Shown: positions 966-15,502 of the stretch, piece by piece | Layout of the letters: each line of letters opens with the position of its first letter | How positions within the stretch are numbered: the stretch's first letter is position 1 | From: Candidatus Nanohaloarchaea archaeon | GTDB lineage: Archaea; Nanohalarchaeota; Nanosalinia; Nanosalinales; Nanosalinaceae | Length of the DNA: 17,656 nucleotides | Assembly: GCA_041640035.1 (NCBI GenBank) | Contig: JBEQBC010000014.1 | Span: 1 to 17,656, forward strand | Reading direction: 5' to 3' | The notes under the pieces: model-generated | The model's input: the letters and a program-made list of their open reading frames with translations, nothing else | The model's database searches: none | What the model was told of the DNA's origin: nothing | Position numbers and translations under genes: made by a program

Positions 966-992
966 AAAGAAGTATACAAAGAAGGTATACAA
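963..992. promoter_or_regulatory. Tandem AAAGA(A)GGTATAC boxes between a putative TATA region and the wHTH start codon
   Basis: CATAAAGAAGTATAC (963-977) then ACAAAGAAGGTATACAA (976-992); near-identical copies at 9861-9875, 9953-9967 and inverted at 10007-10023. Confidence 0.6.
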
Positions 993-2551: not shown

Positions 2552-2583
2552 GAAATAAAAAACACTGCACATATTTGTCACCT

Positions 2584-3273
2584 ATGAGTGACATAAACCA
2601 GTACAGTCTTGACAATCTGCCTTCGGAAGTCACAGTCCTTCCGATGAGCCACCCAGAAGATGTACTTGAGAAAGCAGAAGACGACTACAGAGAAGTAGAC
2701 AACCATGTCTACGCTTCTGAGGACAGCGTTGTCCTAGGAGACATCTACGGAGCAGGTCAGACCATCGACAAGATGGCAGACGCGATCGAAGGCGGAGCAG
2801 AAACATTCAATATAGTCGGGCTCTGCGCAGCCAGAAAAGGAACATACGAACCAGGAGACATCGTAGAACCGGAACAGGTACACGGAGTAGATACCTTCTC
2901 AACCTCCACAGAACCAGAGTATGTGAGAGAGCCTGAAGAGTTCCCAGCACAGGAAGTAGTCGATGGCAGAACAACGCACGCTTCAGTACCAGCAGTACAT
3001 TATGATGCCTCAGAATATGTACATGAAAACGAGATAGACACTATAGAGATGGAGACAGCAGCCGCTCTTCTCGCAGCTGAAGGAGGCGACCGAGTCGACC
3101 TCACAGAAGAGGAAACAGAAGATACCTCAGTAACTGCAGCTTTCGCCGTATTCGACACATTTGAAGACGAATTAAGCCAGGATGCGGTATGGGACGACTC
3201 CGAGATCACATTTGAGGAAGCATACGAGAAATCAACCGCGGCAGCAGCCGAAGCAGTCGATAAGCTTCCCTGA
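2584..3273 (+). CDS. Divergent nucleoside phosphorylase-fold (PNP/UDP) protein
   Basis: NIVGLCAA, PGDIVEP and IEMETAAALLAA match NP-I family motifs; highly acidic. Confidence 0.6.
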   Translation: MSDINQYSLDNLPSEVTVLPMSHPEDVLEKAEDDYREVDNHVYASEDSVVLGDIYGAGQTIDKMADAIEGGAETFNIVGLCAARKGTYEPGDIVEPEQVHGVDTFSTSTEPEYVREPEEFPAQEVVDGRTTHASVPAVHYDASEYVHENEIDTIEMETAAALLAAEGGDRVDLTEEETEDTSVTAAFAVFDTFEDELSQDAVWDDSEITFEEAYEKSTAAAAEAVDKLP

Positions 3274-5377: not shown

Positions 5378-6130
5378 ATGTCAAGTAGGATGTACTACCT
5401 AGTCATCAGTTCTAACCCCGAAGATATCCAATCTAAGTTTAGAGATAGATTTGACGCTCCTGAGATGGGGAAAATTATCGAATCTAGCCAGGTTTTATTC
5501 CGGCTTAACGAGACTAATAAATTTTCAGGTTACGTTGGCGAAGGAACCGTGGAAAAAGATAGTATCTGGCATGAAGCGGCCGAAGATATTGACAGAGTTG
5601 TTGAAATAGCATGGAACGATACAAGCAGTATCACTTACGGCACCCTATACAAAATAAGGGATGGAGAATCTATTAAGGTAGATCACGAGTATGGCGATCT
5701 TCACCCTTTCTTCGGAGATGAGGCGGAAGACCTAGATATAGATGCGGATCTAGATAAACCTGATTTCCAAGCCCACTCTCATGTTCCAGCATATTTTTTC
5801 AGAGTGCATGGACTGAAGATATTCGACAAATACCCTGAAGAACGGTCAAAAATTGAGTTTAAAGATACTTACAGCCCTGATTCTGATTCAGATGTTGAAA
5901 GGACTTGTCCTTCCTGCGAAAGTCATAAAATCAGTCTTGAAGAATGGAAGGCTGAGTGTGAAGACTGTGGATATAGAAATACAGAAGTTTGGTTCAGCCA
6001 GTATTCAGTTAAGACCACGAGGCTACGCGATTCTGATTTAACAAGAAAGAATAGCTCTTCGGCTAATAACCACAAGCAAAATTCAAACATTCTGGATAAA
6101 CTTCTCAAGGTGTTAAATAGAAATGACTAA
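5378..6130 (+). CDS. Hypothetical protein with C-terminal zinc ribbon
   Basis: 250-aa ORF, CPSC...CEDCG; T-rich codon usage unlike neighbours; overlaps dnaJ start by 8 nt. Confidence 0.7.
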
Positions 6131-7260: not shown

Positions 7261-7455
7261 ATGAAGATAGACAAGATCCAGGACGACGGCGAGAGATTCA
7301 TCATCCACGGAACCAATATCCATGACGAACTTCAGTCTATCTTCGACAACATCGCACTCGGAGTAACAGTCTCCAAACACGGAGACCAGTCACATGTACT
7401 GTACACCGAGAACAACAGAGATATCGTGCTGAGAATTCTGAACGAGAAAACCTGA
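7261..7455 (+). CDS. Small hypothetical protein (64 aa)
   Basis: ATG ORF filling the gap between dnaJ and the convergent HTH gene; host-like codon usage. Confidence 0.6.
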   Translation: MKIDKIQDDGERFIIHGTNIHDELQSIFDNIALGVTVSKHGDQSHVLYTENNRDIVLRILNEKT

Positions 7456-9247: not shown

Positions 9248-9467
9248 CCTGGTTCCACACCTCTTTCCACCTTTCTTCTACTCACAAAACAAAGAATACA
9301 GTGGAACTAAAAACACCGAAGTAGTTAATTTAGAACGAACATACCATTCTTTTTAAATAGTTTCGTAGTCACCGACCAATTAAATTTAAGTCAAAGAGTG
9401 TTAAATATCATCGAACACCCCTTGGTTAGACACAAGAAGTAAAAGATAGAGAAACCTGTTTAGACAT

Positions 9468-9788
9468 ATGGAGAACCCTCTAAGCAACGATATCAGAGTT
9501 GGAACAGTAACTAAAGCTGAGAAGTTTGATGAAGCCAGAAAGCCTGAAATGTTCAAGCTCTGGATCGATATAGGAGACAGAAAAGTACAGAGCGCGGTCC
9601 AACTAGGCTACAACCACACAATAGAGGAAGTGGAAAACAGCCAGGTTATGTGTGTATTGGACCTAGGCGAAGTCAAGATTGCAGGATTCAAGTCCGAAGC
9701 ACTCACAGTTGGTGTACCTGACGAGGACGGCAACCCTGTACTGATATCGCCGAATGAAGAAGTACCTGAAGGTGGAGAACTATACTGA
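9468..9788 (+). CDS. csaA: CsaA/Trbp111-type tRNA-binding / export chaperone
   Basis: DIRVGTVTKAEKFDEARKP, KLWIDIG, VKIAGFKSEALTVG, LISP...VPEGGELY. Confidence 0.9.
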   Translation: MENPLSNDIRVGTVTKAEKFDEARKPEMFKLWIDIGDRKVQSAVQLGYNHTIEEVENSQVMCVLDLGEVKIAGFKSEALTVGVPDEDGNPVLISPNEEVPEGGELY

Positions 9789-9860
9789 GTGTTCAAACAA
9801 AATTAACACTCATTAATCAGATTTAATCGAGTAAAGCGGCAAGCCAGAAAATCGCCCAGC

Positions 9861-10023
9861 ATAAAGAAGGTATATCGCAAGTAGGCGAGTTTGTGTTTCC
9901 TGGTATATCCCTGGCGCTTTACCTTGGGTAAGTGCGACGGATACGACATATAATAAAGAAGGTATATTTTCTCAGTCTCCTGACAAGTAAACGATTCACT
10001 CGATTCTTGTATACCTCCTTTGT
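9861..10023. repeat. Three AAAGRAGGTATA boxes (two direct, one inverted) in a convergent intergenic region
   Basis: ATAAAGAAGGTATAT exact at 9861-9875 and 9953-9967; TTGTATACCTCCTTTGT at 10007-10023. Confidence 0.8.
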
Positions 10024-10083
10024 TATGGCCAAATTTCTGATATCTTCACCATTCATGAGTGTTCATCGTTTTTTAACACTCAT

Positions 10084-10722
10084 TTATCTCTGACCAGACA
10101 GGTAAAGATGCGGCGAAGATTCAGGATCATAATGAATCTCTGTTTCAAACCCGTGTTCTTCCAGACGAGATGCTATTCTATTTGCATACTCAAGTTGATT
10201 GTCTAGAGAATCTTCTGCTAGGTCGGGCATCTGATATCGGTTAACTCCTTTCATAGTGTAGAGAAGTGCAGAATCTTCATCATCCAGTAATCTGTCAGAG
10301 GTGCTAGCTAGACGCTGAAATGCGTTATCAAGAACTTCATCTCTTTGTTCATGATCGGAGTAATCGAAGGTGTGCAGGTTTGTTTCTTCACCAATCTGGG
10401 TCTGGAGAGCTGCTGTAGTATCGTCTCCAAGAGCCCATCCGTACTCGAAGTCAAAGCCGTTTCCTGTGTAATTATGTGTTTTGACAGGTGCTACGGTTAC
10501 TTCAGGTTGTCTTGAGAAGCCTGAACGGGGAGTCATTCCTACGATATTATCGACATCTCCTTCATCAACCAGGCTCCTGCTGATTCTTTCTTCATTCGGC
10601 CAGACAAATGCTTTTTCGGGCTCTATATCCATCTCAGAGAGCCATTTTCCAACCCTCACACTGTCCTCTACACTCGGACTGTTCACTTCAATTGAACTCT
10701 CAGGTCGGGAAGAATTACTCAT
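10084..10722 (-). CDS. Hypothetical protein, possibly degenerate class I methyltransferase fold
   Basis: 212-aa acidic ORF; VLDNAFQRLASTSDRLLDDEDSALLY loosely resembles the MTase post-motif region; no clear GxGxG. Confidence 0.6.
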   Translation of the reverse strand: MSNSSRPESSIEVNSPSVEDSVRVGKWLSEMDIEPEKAFVWPNEERISRSLVDEGDVDNIVGMTPRSGFSRQPEVTVAPVKTHNYTGNGFDFEYGWALGDDTTAALQTQIGEETNLHTFDYSDHEQRDEVLDNAFQRLASTSDRLLDDEDSALLYTMKGVNRYQMPDLAEDSLDNQLEYANRIASRLEEHGFETEIHYDPESSPHLYLSGQR

Positions 10723-10870
10723 TTCACTTTACAGTATAAACACAAGTATTTAAAAACATTTGAATGTTCGTTTTTTGTCAACAACATAGTGTTCGTTCAG
10801 AGCGAACACTCAGCAAGGTGATGTGAGTTTTGAGCCCGGTTTTTTCAGTTTTGAGTCATGAATCGCGGTT

Positions 10871-11356
10871 ATGAAGGCGGCGTTTGTCTCGGAGCACGAA
10901 GAGTTACTGAAGCGGTTGGTGGATGAGTTCGACCTGGTGATCAGTGACCGTGATGATCTTAGGCATGTATGTGAGGATAAGTTCCTGAATCTAGAGCATG
11001 ATGAGGGAGAGATCTTTGAGGTGCTTGAATCGAAGGGTGTTTCCACCGCCGTTAGCCTGGGGTATCGAAGGCTTTTCTCCGAACATCTCTTAGAGCATTC
11101 TGATTGTGAGTTCTACAACATGCATCCATCGATACTTCCGGCCTTCAAAGGACTTGATGTATACCAGCGAGTTCTTGACCGAGGTGTCGATGTGAGTGGT
11201 GCAACTCTTCACCGCATCAACGAAGAGATGGATGAAGGAGAGATAATTGACCAGATAACATACCGTGTGAGAGAAGATATGACTGTGGAAGAACTGAAGA
11301 GGTATGCTTCGAAGTATGAGGCCCGTATTGTGAGAACAAACCTAGAAGAGTTGTGA
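10871..11356 (+). CDS. Formyltransferase, PurN/Fmt_core family
   Basis: FYNMHPSILPAFKG, SGATLHRINEEMDEGEIIDQ catalytic motifs. Confidence 0.9.
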   Translation: MKAAFVSEHEELLKRLVDEFDLVISDRDDLRHVCEDKFLNLEHDEGEIFEVLESKGVSTAVSLGYRRLFSEHLLEHSDCEFYNMHPSILPAFKGLDVYQRVLDRGVDVSGATLHRINEEMDEGEIIDQITYRVREDMTVEELKRYASKYEARIVRTNLEEL

Positions 11357-14065: not shown

Positions 14066-14452
14066 TCAGTTCTGTGGCAGTATGTTTACTGCTTCTGTGT
14101 GTTTACTGCCTTCCAGCTCGTTGAAGAACTCTATTACCAAGTCGGCTTTTCCATTCGTATGGAATACTTCCAGACAGTTCTCGCCGTCTAACTTGCTGTG
14201 GAGCTGGGTGGTTATGACGCTGTCGTAGTCGTGTGCTATGCCGCCAATCCTCTGCTCTTTCTTGTGAGGATGTCTTACAACTATAACTGCATTGAGTTCT
14301 CCGCTAAGACTCTGGTTATTTATTGTTTCTTGGTGCAGGTTCTCTATCGCTTTCCGGAACAGTTCGCTCCGGCCGTTGAAGCTTGATTCTTCCTGTATTT
14401 CATCGATTTTCTCAAGTGTTTCTTCATCCAGTGAGAGACTTATTATTTCCAT
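14066..14452 (-). CDS. NikR-like ribbon-helix-helix metalloregulator
   Basis: IISLSLDEETLEKID...GRSELFRKAI RHH plus ACT-like domain with H...QLHSKL...CLEV. Confidence 0.85.
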   Translation of the reverse strand: MEIISLSLDEETLEKIDEIQEESSFNGRSELFRKAIENLHQETINNQSLSGELNAVIVVRHPHKKEQRIGGIAHDYDSVITTQLHSKLDGENCLEVFHTNGKADLVIEFFNELEGSKHTEAVNILPQN

Positions 14453-14461
14453 AACACCTGA

Positions 14462-14489
14462 TTAATAGCACTGCTTAAAAAGTTATTAA
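14462..14489. promoter_or_regulatory. Putative NikR-type operator TTAATA-N16-TATTAA
   Basis: Perfect 6-16-6 inverted repeat inside the 52-bp divergent gap between regulator and ZIP gene. Confidence 0.6.
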
Positions 14490-14504
14490 CAAAATGTACT
14501 GGTT

Positions 14505-15239
14505 ATGAACATAACTGAAATCCTCGCAGCACTCACAGCTACAGCAGTTTTCTCCGCAATCAGCGCCTTCTTCCTATTCATATCGGAGAGAGACTTCGAG
14601 AAAATCACACCTTTCCTGATCTCGCTAGCCGCCGGTACAATATTCGGCGGAGTATTCATCCACCTCGTGTTCAGGATGGCAAACAAGTACAGCTATACGC
14701 GGAACACCGGTCTGCTCGTTATAGCCGGGATCCTCGGATCGTTCTTCCTGGAGAAACTCGTACACTGGCACTGTCACCATACCGGGAGGCATGAGGAACC
14801 GCTTCCCTATGTTCTCGCCGCAGGAGACAGCGTCCACAATGTCCTTGACGGCATCCTGATAGCAACCAGCTTCCTCGCATCGACTTCAGCAGGGATGGCA
14901 GCAACAGTCGCAATCATCGCACACAAGATACCGAAAGAACTAGGGGACTTCGGAGTCATGGTTGACGGAGGATTCTCACAGATCAAAGCTTTAGCAGTCA
15001 ACATCGGCGTCAGCGTCTTCATGTTCGTAGGAGCCGGAATGGTACTGCTGCTTTCACAGACCTCAATCGCTCCTGTACCTGTACTTCTGCCGCTTGTAAT
15101 CGGAAACTTCGTTTTCATAGCAGGCAGCGATCTGCTTCCCGAGTTTAAAACAGAAGATCAGTGGATTAAACACCTAGCTCTGTTCTCGGTCGGAGTACTG
15201 ATCATGTACCTGATCCCGTACCTGAAAGCTGCGGTCTAG
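14505..15239 (+). CDS. ZIP family divalent metal (zinc) transporter
   Basis: LAAGTIFGGVFIHL, His-rich loop HWHCHH, GDSVHNVLDG, IAHKIPKELGDFG. Confidence 0.92.
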   Translation: MNITEILAALTATAVFSAISAFFLFISERDFEKITPFLISLAAGTIFGGVFIHLVFRMANKYSYTRNTGLLVIAGILGSFFLEKLVHWHCHHTGRHEEPLPYVLAAGDSVHNVLDGILIATSFLASTSAGMAATVAIIAHKIPKELGDFGVMVDGGFSQIKALAVNIGVSVFMFVGAGMVLLLSQTSIAPVPVLLPLVIGNFVFIAGSDLLPEFKTEDQWIKHLALFSVGVLIMYLIPYLKAAV

Positions 15240-15502
15240 AACTCGTTCAGTACTTTGCTGAGTTTCTTGGCGATTTCCTCGCCTTTATCCGTTAACTCGA
15301 TATTCTTTTTCCTGCCTTTCTCCTCTGTATCCACCAAGCTGTTTTCTTCAAATCTCTGGATAACTCTTACAGCATGGGAGTATGTGCAGTCAACGGATTT
15401 AGAAAGTTCAGAAGCATAATTATCAGTACGCGGATTGTTTATCTCGATCAGAAGCCGGACCGGCTTTTCACGGACAAAAAGTTCTCTAAGCGGTTTTGAC
15501 AC
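15236..15502 (-). CDS. MarR-like winged-helix regulator (88 aa, GTG start)
   Basis: YASELSKSVDCTYSHAVRVIQRFEENSLV...KGRKKNIELTDKG; GGAGG SD upstream. Confidence 0.85.
   Translation of the reverse strand: MSKPLRELFVREKPVRLLIEINNPRTDNYASELSKSVDCTYSHAVRVIQRFEENSLVDTEEKGRKKNIELTDKGEEIAKKLSKVLNEF

Follow-up and report, generated by a model that had tools for sequence, protein, structure and literature searches.

Proteins of the ArgR/AhrC type combine a winged-helix module with a small alpha/beta domain for oligomerisation and effector binding, and their operators are tandem palindromic ARG boxes that lie over promoters and sometimes inside genes. The CIRCE operator of HrcA, found in bacterial chaperone operons, is a 9-bp inverted repeat around a 9-bp spacer with the arm GAGTGCTAA. 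AspA from Sulfolobus pNOB8, a winged helix-turn-helix (wHTH) protein of ~90 amino acids (aa), is described as binding a 23-bp palindrome and spreading from it (PMC13722703). Here, we analysed a cluster of seven 27-bp palindromes, referred to as PAL sites, in a contig of Candidatus Nanohaloarchaea archaeon, where they lie around a conserved non-coding block, a csaA-like gene and p212, a gene for a 212-aa protein. The window, meaning the whole stretch of DNA that was analysed, is the entire contig C14 with 17,656 bp; it belongs to a genome (G000) of 978,572 bp in 24 contigs, which has 45% G+C and is 89% complete. On balance, and with modest confidence, we interpret the palindromes as predicted operators of one dimeric or higher-order DNA-binding protein that would control a single small locus of the Nanohaloarchaeota. 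DNA of C14 is present in metagenome runs from hypersaline lakes, and no RNA run was found to contain it. Close homologues of the encoded proteins carry the label Candidatus Nanohaloarchaea in their sources. The window also codes for GrpE-DnaK-DnaJ, a histone, RPA, RadA, several small helix-turn-helix proteins and many open reading frames (ORFs) without a family.

Distribution and conservation of the palindromes

The original prediction, made from the letters of the window, had listed six palindromes of the form GTGTT-N11-AACAC at gene boundaries and had considered them to be either recombination sites or an array of protein binding sites. All six are present in the sequence where they had been placed, as are the details that the csaA stop codon TGA (9786-9788) begins one site and that the 212-aa ORF ends at 10084, one base past another. 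The site given as 9321-9344 is a weak one, with a good right arm (CGAACATAC) and a poor left arm, and it is supported by its position. A seventh site, which had been missed, lies within codons 7-16 of p212 (10676-10702, 20.5 bits). The seven 7-bp spacers in the window all differ, as had been noted for the first six. The proposed asymmetry of the arms, with a TTAA and a GTTC side, holds in this genus (G000, G002) and is lost at the level of the order, where the consensus is symmetric, YGAGTGTTCR-N7-YGAACACTCR.

Exact matches to GTGTT-N11-AACAC occur four times in the window (at 9398, 9789, 10059 and 10789), whereas shuffled versions of the window contain 0.47 on average and reached four matches in 0 of 200 shuffles. 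These four matches, which span 1.4 kb (9398-10809), are also the only ones in the whole G000 genome, and spacers of 5-17 other than 11 yielded just 0-2 exact matches. For a more tolerant description we used a 27-bp matrix trained on 59 sites of relatives, with G000 excluded from the training set; it was applied genome-wide to G000 and, in the relatives, to the fetched cluster loci. The genome-wide scan, which had been proposed together with the original prediction, revealed no scatter of the motif elsewhere: ranks 1 to 5 all fall into the window (10786, 31.1 bits; 9786, 29.6 bits; 10056, 27.7 bits; 9395, 23.9 bits; 10676, 20.5 bits), and the best match outside it scores 18.5 bits. Matches of at least 20 bits number five in the real genome, all of them in the window, and none in the reversed genome or in any of three local shuffles of the genome. 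Within the window, seven positions score above 3 bits, all inside 9319-10812.

Several other assignments were rejected. Dispersed repeats such as repetitive extragenic palindromes or bacterial interspersed mosaic elements (REP/BIME) and miniature inverted-repeat transposable elements (MITE) are ruled out by the distribution, since the strong copies are all in one 1.5-kb locus. The same holds for a viral element, as the exact 16-base pattern was found in 15 viral contigs, once in each and never clustered. Lesser matrix matches at C2:9862, C2:74715 and C1:70952 lie inside coding DNA and lack the TATA composite described below, and a 17.8-bit match at C4:49124 was taken as chance because this position falls within the RNase P RNA. 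The RNase P RNA gene itself (C4:48829-49139, minus strand) is divergent and would be missed by standard annotation; it scores 41 bits against a gathering score of 84. Full-text literature searches, with supplements outside their scope, returned no paper describing the motif or the block and yielded only coincidences with primers.

The palindromes are conserved throughout the order. Of 41 relatives, 28 have the exact core, a reversed control pattern gave almost no matches, and a longer pattern occurs in 24 of the 70 genomes of the phylum that were examined, all from one order (control, 0 of 70). With a cut-off of 13 bits, clusters of 3-9 sites are present in 18/18 and 9/9 loci (27 in total), including genomes without the exact core. 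One further palindrome of 17-21 bits, apart from the main cluster, recurs ~0.3-0.9 kb downstream of radA in families f3 and f4 (L055:5609, L056:11585, L057:11568, L058:12309, L068:9278).

The spacers are 72% A+T and differ between sites, and they also differ between the 91%-identical genomes G000 and G002, in which the arms are unchanged. Variation within the arms was followed in 100 sites of at least 15 bits from 20 loci. Positions 6-7 of the arm are invariant. At position 9, both arms carry the consensus base in 52 sites, one arm deviates in 47 and a compensated change is seen in one; at position 4, the corresponding numbers are 49, 40 and 1, with a further 10 sites showing uncompensated double deviations. 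Over all conserved positions, 0-2 compensated changes contrast with 13-48 one-sided ones per position, although selecting the sites by matrix score disfavours double changes to some extent. The two arms thus deviate independently and almost without compensation, which argues for a protein site rather than a hairpin, and the high rate of one-sided mismatches indicates that selection does not maintain pairing. Two half-sites read by a protein dimer would leave such a signature.

Promoter geometry and the bracketed block

A composite element with the order PAL-TATA-PAL is found upstream of s64, a gene for a 64-aa protein, in 12 relatives, upstream of csaA in G000, G002 and G003, and upstream of p212 in G000, G008 and G020. 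In this composite, a T/A-rich box, for example TTTTTTAAAGG, comes within a few bases after the right arm of the first PAL site (CGAACATTC or CGAACATAC). Boxes of this type precede the 36 tRNA genes of G000 by ~40 nt. The distance from the first PAL site to the second is 76-85 bp, or ~100-110 bp in some genomes. For s64 and csaA, the ATG lies 36-46 nt past the second site, whereas the p212 ATG precedes the second site, which is why PAL site 5 falls inside the p212 frame. As the order of ATG and site differs between genes, the sites track the promoter and not the ORF. Distances between neighbouring sites, taken over all loci, peak at 25 bp (4-6 times), 76-78 bp (10 times) and 100-103 bp (6 times), and the outer edges of clusters repeatedly show triplets such as 25+76.

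The window follows this scheme on both sides of the block (Table 1). PAL site 1 adjoins a TATA-like box and site 2 follows 76 bp further on, an arrangement that relatives show ahead of s64, and the box TTTTTAAATA is of the type present ahead of the tRNA genes and after the upstream PAL site in relatives. In this genus, csaA is the first gene under the PAL-flanked promoter. The box TATTTAAAAAC precedes the p212 ATG by ~25-35 nt on the minus strand, and in plus-strand orientation it could belong to the formyltransferase gene. Composites of the TATTTAAAAAC type also occur in G001, G008 and G020, the formyltransferase gene adjoins PAL sites in G001, G004 and G024 as well, and site 5 is conserved in G002, G008 and G020. 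Sites 6 and 7 form a tandem pair at 25 bp, a spacing that is encountered 4-6 times in relatives.

Table 1. Features of the PAL locus and of the genes discussed with it, in window coordinates.
Feature	Position	Strand	Score or match	Remarks
s64 (64-aa protein)	7261..7455	+		Homologues by tblastn
PAL site 1	9319..9345	none	4.4 bits	Weak putative upstream operator of the csaA promoter; left arm degenerate
TATA-like box TTTTTAAATA	9350..9359	+		Putative csaA promoter, between sites 1 and 2; assigned by likeness
PAL site 2	9395..9421	none	23.9 bits	Putative downstream operator of the csaA promoter; distance from its end to the ATG of csaA, 46 nt
csaA-like gene, tRNA_bind domain	9468..9788	+	Pfam PF01588, E 5.9e-12
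PAL site 3	9786..9812	none	29.6 bits	Brackets the non-coding block on its left; shares bases with the csaA stop codon
Conserved non-coding block	9813..10055	none		~240 bp, between sites 3 and 4
PAL site 4	10056..10082	none	27.7 bits	Brackets the block on its right; the 212-aa ORF ends one base away
p212 (212-aa ORF)	10084..10722	-		Lineage-restricted gene under a PAL-flanked promoter
PAL site 5	10676..10702	none	20.5 bits	Putative downstream operator of the p212 promoter, inside p212
AT-rich TATA-like box TATTTAAAAAC	10747..10757	not assigned		Predicted from sequence
PAL site 6	10761..10787	none	14.6 bits	Adjoins the TATA-like box TATTTAAAAAC
PAL site 7	10786..10812	none	31.1 bits	Best match of the genome
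Formyl-transferase-domain gene	10871..11356	+	Pfam PF00551, E 6e-24	Starts 59 nt after site 7
88-aa winged-helix protein	15236..15502	-	Pfam HTH_27 / DUF6293_C

The block between sites 3 and 4 contains no long ORF, yet it retains ~70-75% DNA identity across genera. The bracketing by PAL sites to which the original prediction had drawn attention is a constant feature, as the block lies between two such sites in 14 of 14 aligned relatives. It carries AAAGAAGGTATA boxes as direct copies at 9863 and 9955 and as an inverted copy at 10010-10021, together with a core, GATTCACTCG, at 9993-10002; one of the boxes is inverted in four genomes. The 11-mer AAAGAAGGTAT has three copies in the G000 genome, all in the window (9863, 9955 and 978). 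Outside the block, its box is present in the genome only at window position 966-990, where a tandem pair of AAAGAAG(G)TATAC boxes immediately precedes the start codon (ATG at 965, minus strand) of an unrelated, family-less 158-aa ORF.

In family f4 (loci L056, L057, L058, L066 and L068), the block is ~310 bp long and likewise bracketed; it has another sequence and a similar plan. It contains an inverted repeat, GTCAACAG/CTGTTGAC, around a CTC[AG]CTCG core, a strong TATA box, TTTTTATATAGG, and two tandem CTTGACAAAAYCCG repeats, and its left PAL site adjoins a TATA-like box. Rfam gave no match in the window at the gathering score and none to the block itself at E <=10, and three weak Rfam matches within 9250-10900 fall outside the block; the f4 block was without a match at E <=1. 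In RNAalifold predictions for either strand, the hairpin formed by the boxes is the sole consensus structure of the block, and its minus strand folds with z = -2.95. A small-protein gene was considered and rejected: G000 has a 51-aa ORF on the minus strand, and there is no codon periodicity (alignment entropy of 0.87, 0.81 and 0.91 by codon phase), the shared frame contains stops in several genomes and an ATG is present only in some. RNase P, signal recognition particle (SRP) and 5S RNA were also rejected, as these RNAs are located elsewhere in G000. We read the block as a putative non-coding transcription unit under PAL control, either an RNA gene or a DNA element, and it may code for a lineage-specific small RNA.

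Candidate binding proteins and rival explanations

A possible, still tentative candidate for the protein that binds the PAL sites is the 88-aa wHTH protein encoded in the neighbourhood, which one source names a MarR-family regulator. Its gene adjoins the PAL cluster in most loci of the order and is divergent from histone-rpa-radA; in this genus, as the comparison of G024 with the window shows, it has been carried 4.4 kb away by an inversion. The recognition helix TYSH[TA]V[KR] and the wing GRKK are invariant. In profile searches, the only close solved relative is the uncharacterised AF_1382 (2qvo; E 2.5e-14), and the next matches, at E values of ~1e-4 to 7e-4, are MarR (7kua; E 9e-5), AspA (E 2.5e-4) and SlyA (E 5e-4), all of which are small dimeric wHTH proteins.

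A second protein of interest is s64, which is encoded by the first gene behind the PAL-flanked promoter in most relatives of the own family of G000, f1. In the window, its gene has moved to 43 nt behind dnaJ with no PAL site upstream, and the PAL-flanked promoter would drive csaA instead. All named matches among the 250 found for s64 come from Nanohaloarchaea, to which the protein is apparently restricted. Its model (predicted local distance difference test score, pLDDT, of 89) shows a beta-beta-alpha-beta-beta-alpha domain, for which the best structural match is the oligomerisation domain of ArgR (Z 8.0, root-mean-square deviation 2.2 over 64 aa; Foldseek template-modelling (TM) score 0.65-0.68). 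ACT domains are nearly tied at Z 7.5, and these values are within the tool's range for a common arrangement. A split ArgR-like repressor, which would be composed of the wHTH protein and s64 as the oligomerising effector subunit, is an attractive lead.

The remaining proteins of the neighbourhood add context. p212 has no Pfam or NCBIfam match, the ESM Atlas gave no usable match, and nine representatives were found among 1.84 billion proteins. Its model (pLDDT 77) resembles the Rossmann-like fold of class I S-adenosylmethionine (SAM)-dependent methyltransferases (Foldseek E 3e-6, TM score ~0.5), with no GxGxG motif obvious by eye. Two family-less ORFs of 232 and 250 aa (2575-3273 and 5378-6130) are interleaved in the grpE-dnaK-dnaJ operon. 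At 14066-15239, a gene for a NikR-like regulator is divergent from one for a ZIP metal transporter; these are likely a metal-responsive pair unrelated to the palindromes.

Of the two readings in the original prediction, the array of sites for a dimeric protein is the one we retain, as the half-sites are kept across the order while the spacers drift, deviations are one-sided and the positions around the TATA boxes are fixed. We infer from these sequence data that a protein binds to the PAL sites and acts as a repressor there. In each 27-bp site, two half-sites of 10 bp (YGAGTGTTCR) would enclose an AT-rich spacer of 7 bp that is free in sequence. One site would adjoin the TATA box on its upstream side, the second would follow 76-85 bp on, beyond the expected transcription start, and a third would often lie 25 bp from the first, so that the bound protein sandwiches the core promoter. 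Oligomerisation of the protein could then loop or wrap the DNA, by which transcription on the flanks would be shut off or gated. The genes controlled in this way would be csaA or s64 on one side of the block and p212 together with the formyltransferase gene on the other. The block probably holds TATA-like boxes of its own and a small RNA, and the bracketing sites would make it part of this nucleoprotein complex; they may also block transcription that reads through from the convergent genes. The 88-aa wHTH protein may act together with the ArgR-C/ACT-like s64 as oligomerising or effector subunit.

A number of observations speak against this model of promoter operators or against the proposed binding partners. 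Among the 12 s64 promoters, both sites reach 13 bits at six, one site does so at five and none at one; the weaker partner sites, often with only the right arm, were recognised by eye, and the TATA boxes were assigned by likeness alone. An ordinary transcription factor would not usually have a regulon that consists of a single locus with 5-9 sites, and the half-site centres are 14-17 bp apart, where 10-11 bp is usual. Both bracketing sites of the block are located at the 3' ends of genes, where a role as promoter operator is not evident. At least 593 stretches across the DPANN phyla encode members of the wHTH family with this helix, at ~45-50% identity between phyla, and the putative link between this protein and the PAL sites is weakened because the protein family is DPANN-wide and the motif is not. 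In the best 80 wHTH loci (L069-L148), inspected for sites within 2.5 kb, a PAL site is present in 16, of which 11 are of the Nanohaloarchaea type, two belong to the Asbonarchaeaceae, a family of the same phylum, and three are labelled "uncultured archaeon"; neither PAL nor a related palindrome was found within this distance at the Woese-, Nano-, Pace-, Aenigmat-, Micr- and Parvarchaeota loci of the same set. The wHTH gene of the window is 4.4 kb away from the array and has no PAL site at its own promoter. Lastly, s64 was not found in four of five f3/f4 genomes with PAL clusters, which are 69-88% complete.

The reading of the PAL sites as core sites of a recombinase, similar to dif/pdif, hix or shufflon systems, by which csaA or s64, the block and p212 are inverted or shuffled, seems quite improbable to us. 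The 10-7-10 architecture with an AT-rich spacer would fit a tyrosine recombinase and every unit is bracketed by sites, whereas the seven spacers of the window all differ, and those of partner sites would be expected to be identical. In the synteny comparison, relative to the wHTH/histone anchor, the block has the same orientation in nine genomes (G003, G005, G007, G008, G010, G019, G020, G023 and G024) and the opposite one in four (G000, G004, G015 and G021); between G004 and G024 the block is flipped with both flanks (wHTH and formyltransferase) fixed, and between G008 and G020 the s64 and p212 sides are exchanged around an unflipped block; at least these two rearrangements have both ends inside the cluster. 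The inversions anticipated in the original prediction are hence seen between genera, but joints that change strand are absent from the contigs of four metagenome DNA runs, in which rare variants are dropped; only low-likeness skips and loose ends (at 9789, 9845 and elsewhere) were noted in these contigs and were ascribed to related strains. Moreover, intergenic breakpoints may coincide with sites by default, and short palindromes may simply be fragile or favoured as breakpoints. G000 has 0 matches to PF00589 and 0 to PF00239, the domains of tyrosine and serine recombinases, at 89% completeness; PF00589 is likewise absent (0 matches) from the one-contig genome G016 with its seven sites, and in the complete genomes G003, G008, G020 and G021 its matches are scattered and not syntenic. 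The fixed positions relative to TATA boxes, including that of the site inside an ORF, are also not explained by recombination. Lacking a recombinase domain in G000 and G016, identical spacers and strand-changing contig joints, the tyrosine-recombinase or pdif mechanism put forward in the original prediction is not supported. If the sites nonetheless drove local inversions, this would represent a recombination system without a recognisable recombinase.

The suggestion that array and block form a chromosome-organising site, be it a centromere-like locus bound by an AspA-like protein or a second, Orc-independent origin, appears unlikely. It would account for the single locus in each genome, whose 5-9 phased palindromes surround a conserved non-coding core with inverted and direct repeats, for the iteron-like tandem CTTGACAAAAYCCG repeats of the f4 core and for neighbours such as histone, RPA and RadA; the match of the wHTH profile to pNOB8 AspA also fits, but is no better than that to MarR/SlyA. 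In four genomes of one contig, 18-62 kb separate the locus from orc1, yet it is found at ~103, 164 and 428 kb in G012, G008 and G019, so that distances of 18-428 kb reveal no fixed relation. ParA-like domains are missing from the 25 ORFs of the window, and C2 and C20 are the only contigs with AAA_31 matches. By eye, the block is not AT-rich, and the sites track promoters. In G000, the orc1 genes are on C8 and C10, outside the window. Upstream of the orc1 gene at C8:2089-3174, the region ~1480-2080 of contig C8 carries several repeats resembling origin recognition boxes (ORB) with G-strings (for example TTCCACATGAAATCAGGGGGT) on both strands, around a very AT-rich stretch of ~90 bp. Because this canonical origin lies on another contig, we rejected the array as canonical origin, and the role as origin or terminus organiser that had been raised initially is not upheld; the PAL sites themselves are without ORB-like sequence, judged against the ORB consensus. 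Even less probable, and in our view very unlikely, are RNA or DNA hairpins that act as bidirectional terminators or processing signals at the flanks of a small RNA gene. Two sites are placed exactly at convergent gene ends, some loops contain T-runs (T6 at 10067-10072), the minus strand of the block folds as mentioned, and the inverted repeat of the boxes around the CACTCG core retains complementarity across families (AAAGAAGGTATA/TATACCTTCTTT in f1, GTCAACAG/CTGTTGAC in f4). The arms, however, lack covariation, with one-sided mismatches in 30-47% of the sites and 0-2 compensated changes at several positions, and their very sequence is kept order-wide, which a hairpin would not need; many sites are found upstream of genes beside TATA boxes, and the T-runs of the loops are inconsistent between relatives. 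This rival concerns the palindromes only, and the block itself may encode an RNA. One might further speculate on a chromosomal hub specific to the Nanohaloarchaeota, in which a higher-order complex of the wHTH protein, a relative of AF_1382 with a distant likeness to AspA, on sites phased at 25, 76 and 101 bp would do more than repress, as a centromere-like mark, a mark for Orc-independent initiation or the gate of a small RNA unit repeatedly inverted between the sites without a classical recombinase; we consider this an outside chance.

We thus continue to favour operators of a dimeric or higher-order protein. Gene regulation and chromosome organisation are almost uncharted in DPANN archaea, for which the locus provides a cis-element conserved across an order. 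Its clear half-sites, the promoter geometry and two candidate partners make direct gel-shift and reporter work feasible in nanohaloarchaeal co-cultures.

Comparison with described systems

The described systems each share some traits with the PAL locus. Similar to pdif and Xer-dif modules, it has inverted arms of ~10-11 bp, a spacer of 6-8 bp and genes that are bracketed by sites. Here, however, a conserved Xer-type recombinase is lacking, the spacers differ and the sites are fixed relative to TATA boxes, and the PAL copies are all in one chromosomal locus and not on plasmids. AspA and the 88-aa wHTH protein are of similar size and AspA binds a palindrome, but the sequence match is weak, with an E value of 2.5e-4 that is at the level of generic wHTH proteins. 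No parB-parA cassette is adjacent to the locus, which has many separate sites, as opposed to one site and spreading in the case of AspA. The CIRCE arm GAGTGCTAA resembles GAGTGTTCA, with the arms in opposite order, and grpE-dnaK-dnaJ lies 2-7 kb from the array in the window and within a few kb in many relatives. In contrast to CIRCE, no PAL site is located upstream of grpE or dnaK in the window, and none of at least 13 bits upstream of grpE in the fetched relatives.

The MarR/SlyA proteins are linked to the 88-aa wHTH protein by profile matches, and their palindromic operators also overlap promoters. The 88-aa protein differs in being a bare wHTH domain without the MarR dimerisation helices and is nearer to AF_1382; furthermore, 5-9 sites are assembled in one locus here, compared with one or two, and the wHTH family is DPANN-wide whereas PAL is confined to the Nanohaloarchaeota. 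With ArgR/AhrC, the locus has in common the tandem pairs of palindromes, the presence of a site inside a gene and the fold match of s64 (Z 8.0). It deviates in that the two modules would be encoded by separate genes, in the form of the site, GTGTTC-N9-GAACAC as opposed to the 18-bp ARG box, in the near tie of the s64 match with ACT domains and in the fact that s64 was not found in several genomes that bear the sites. Taken together, the array is conserved across the order and highly non-random and, as far as its sequence tells, it resembles a multi-operator repressor system.

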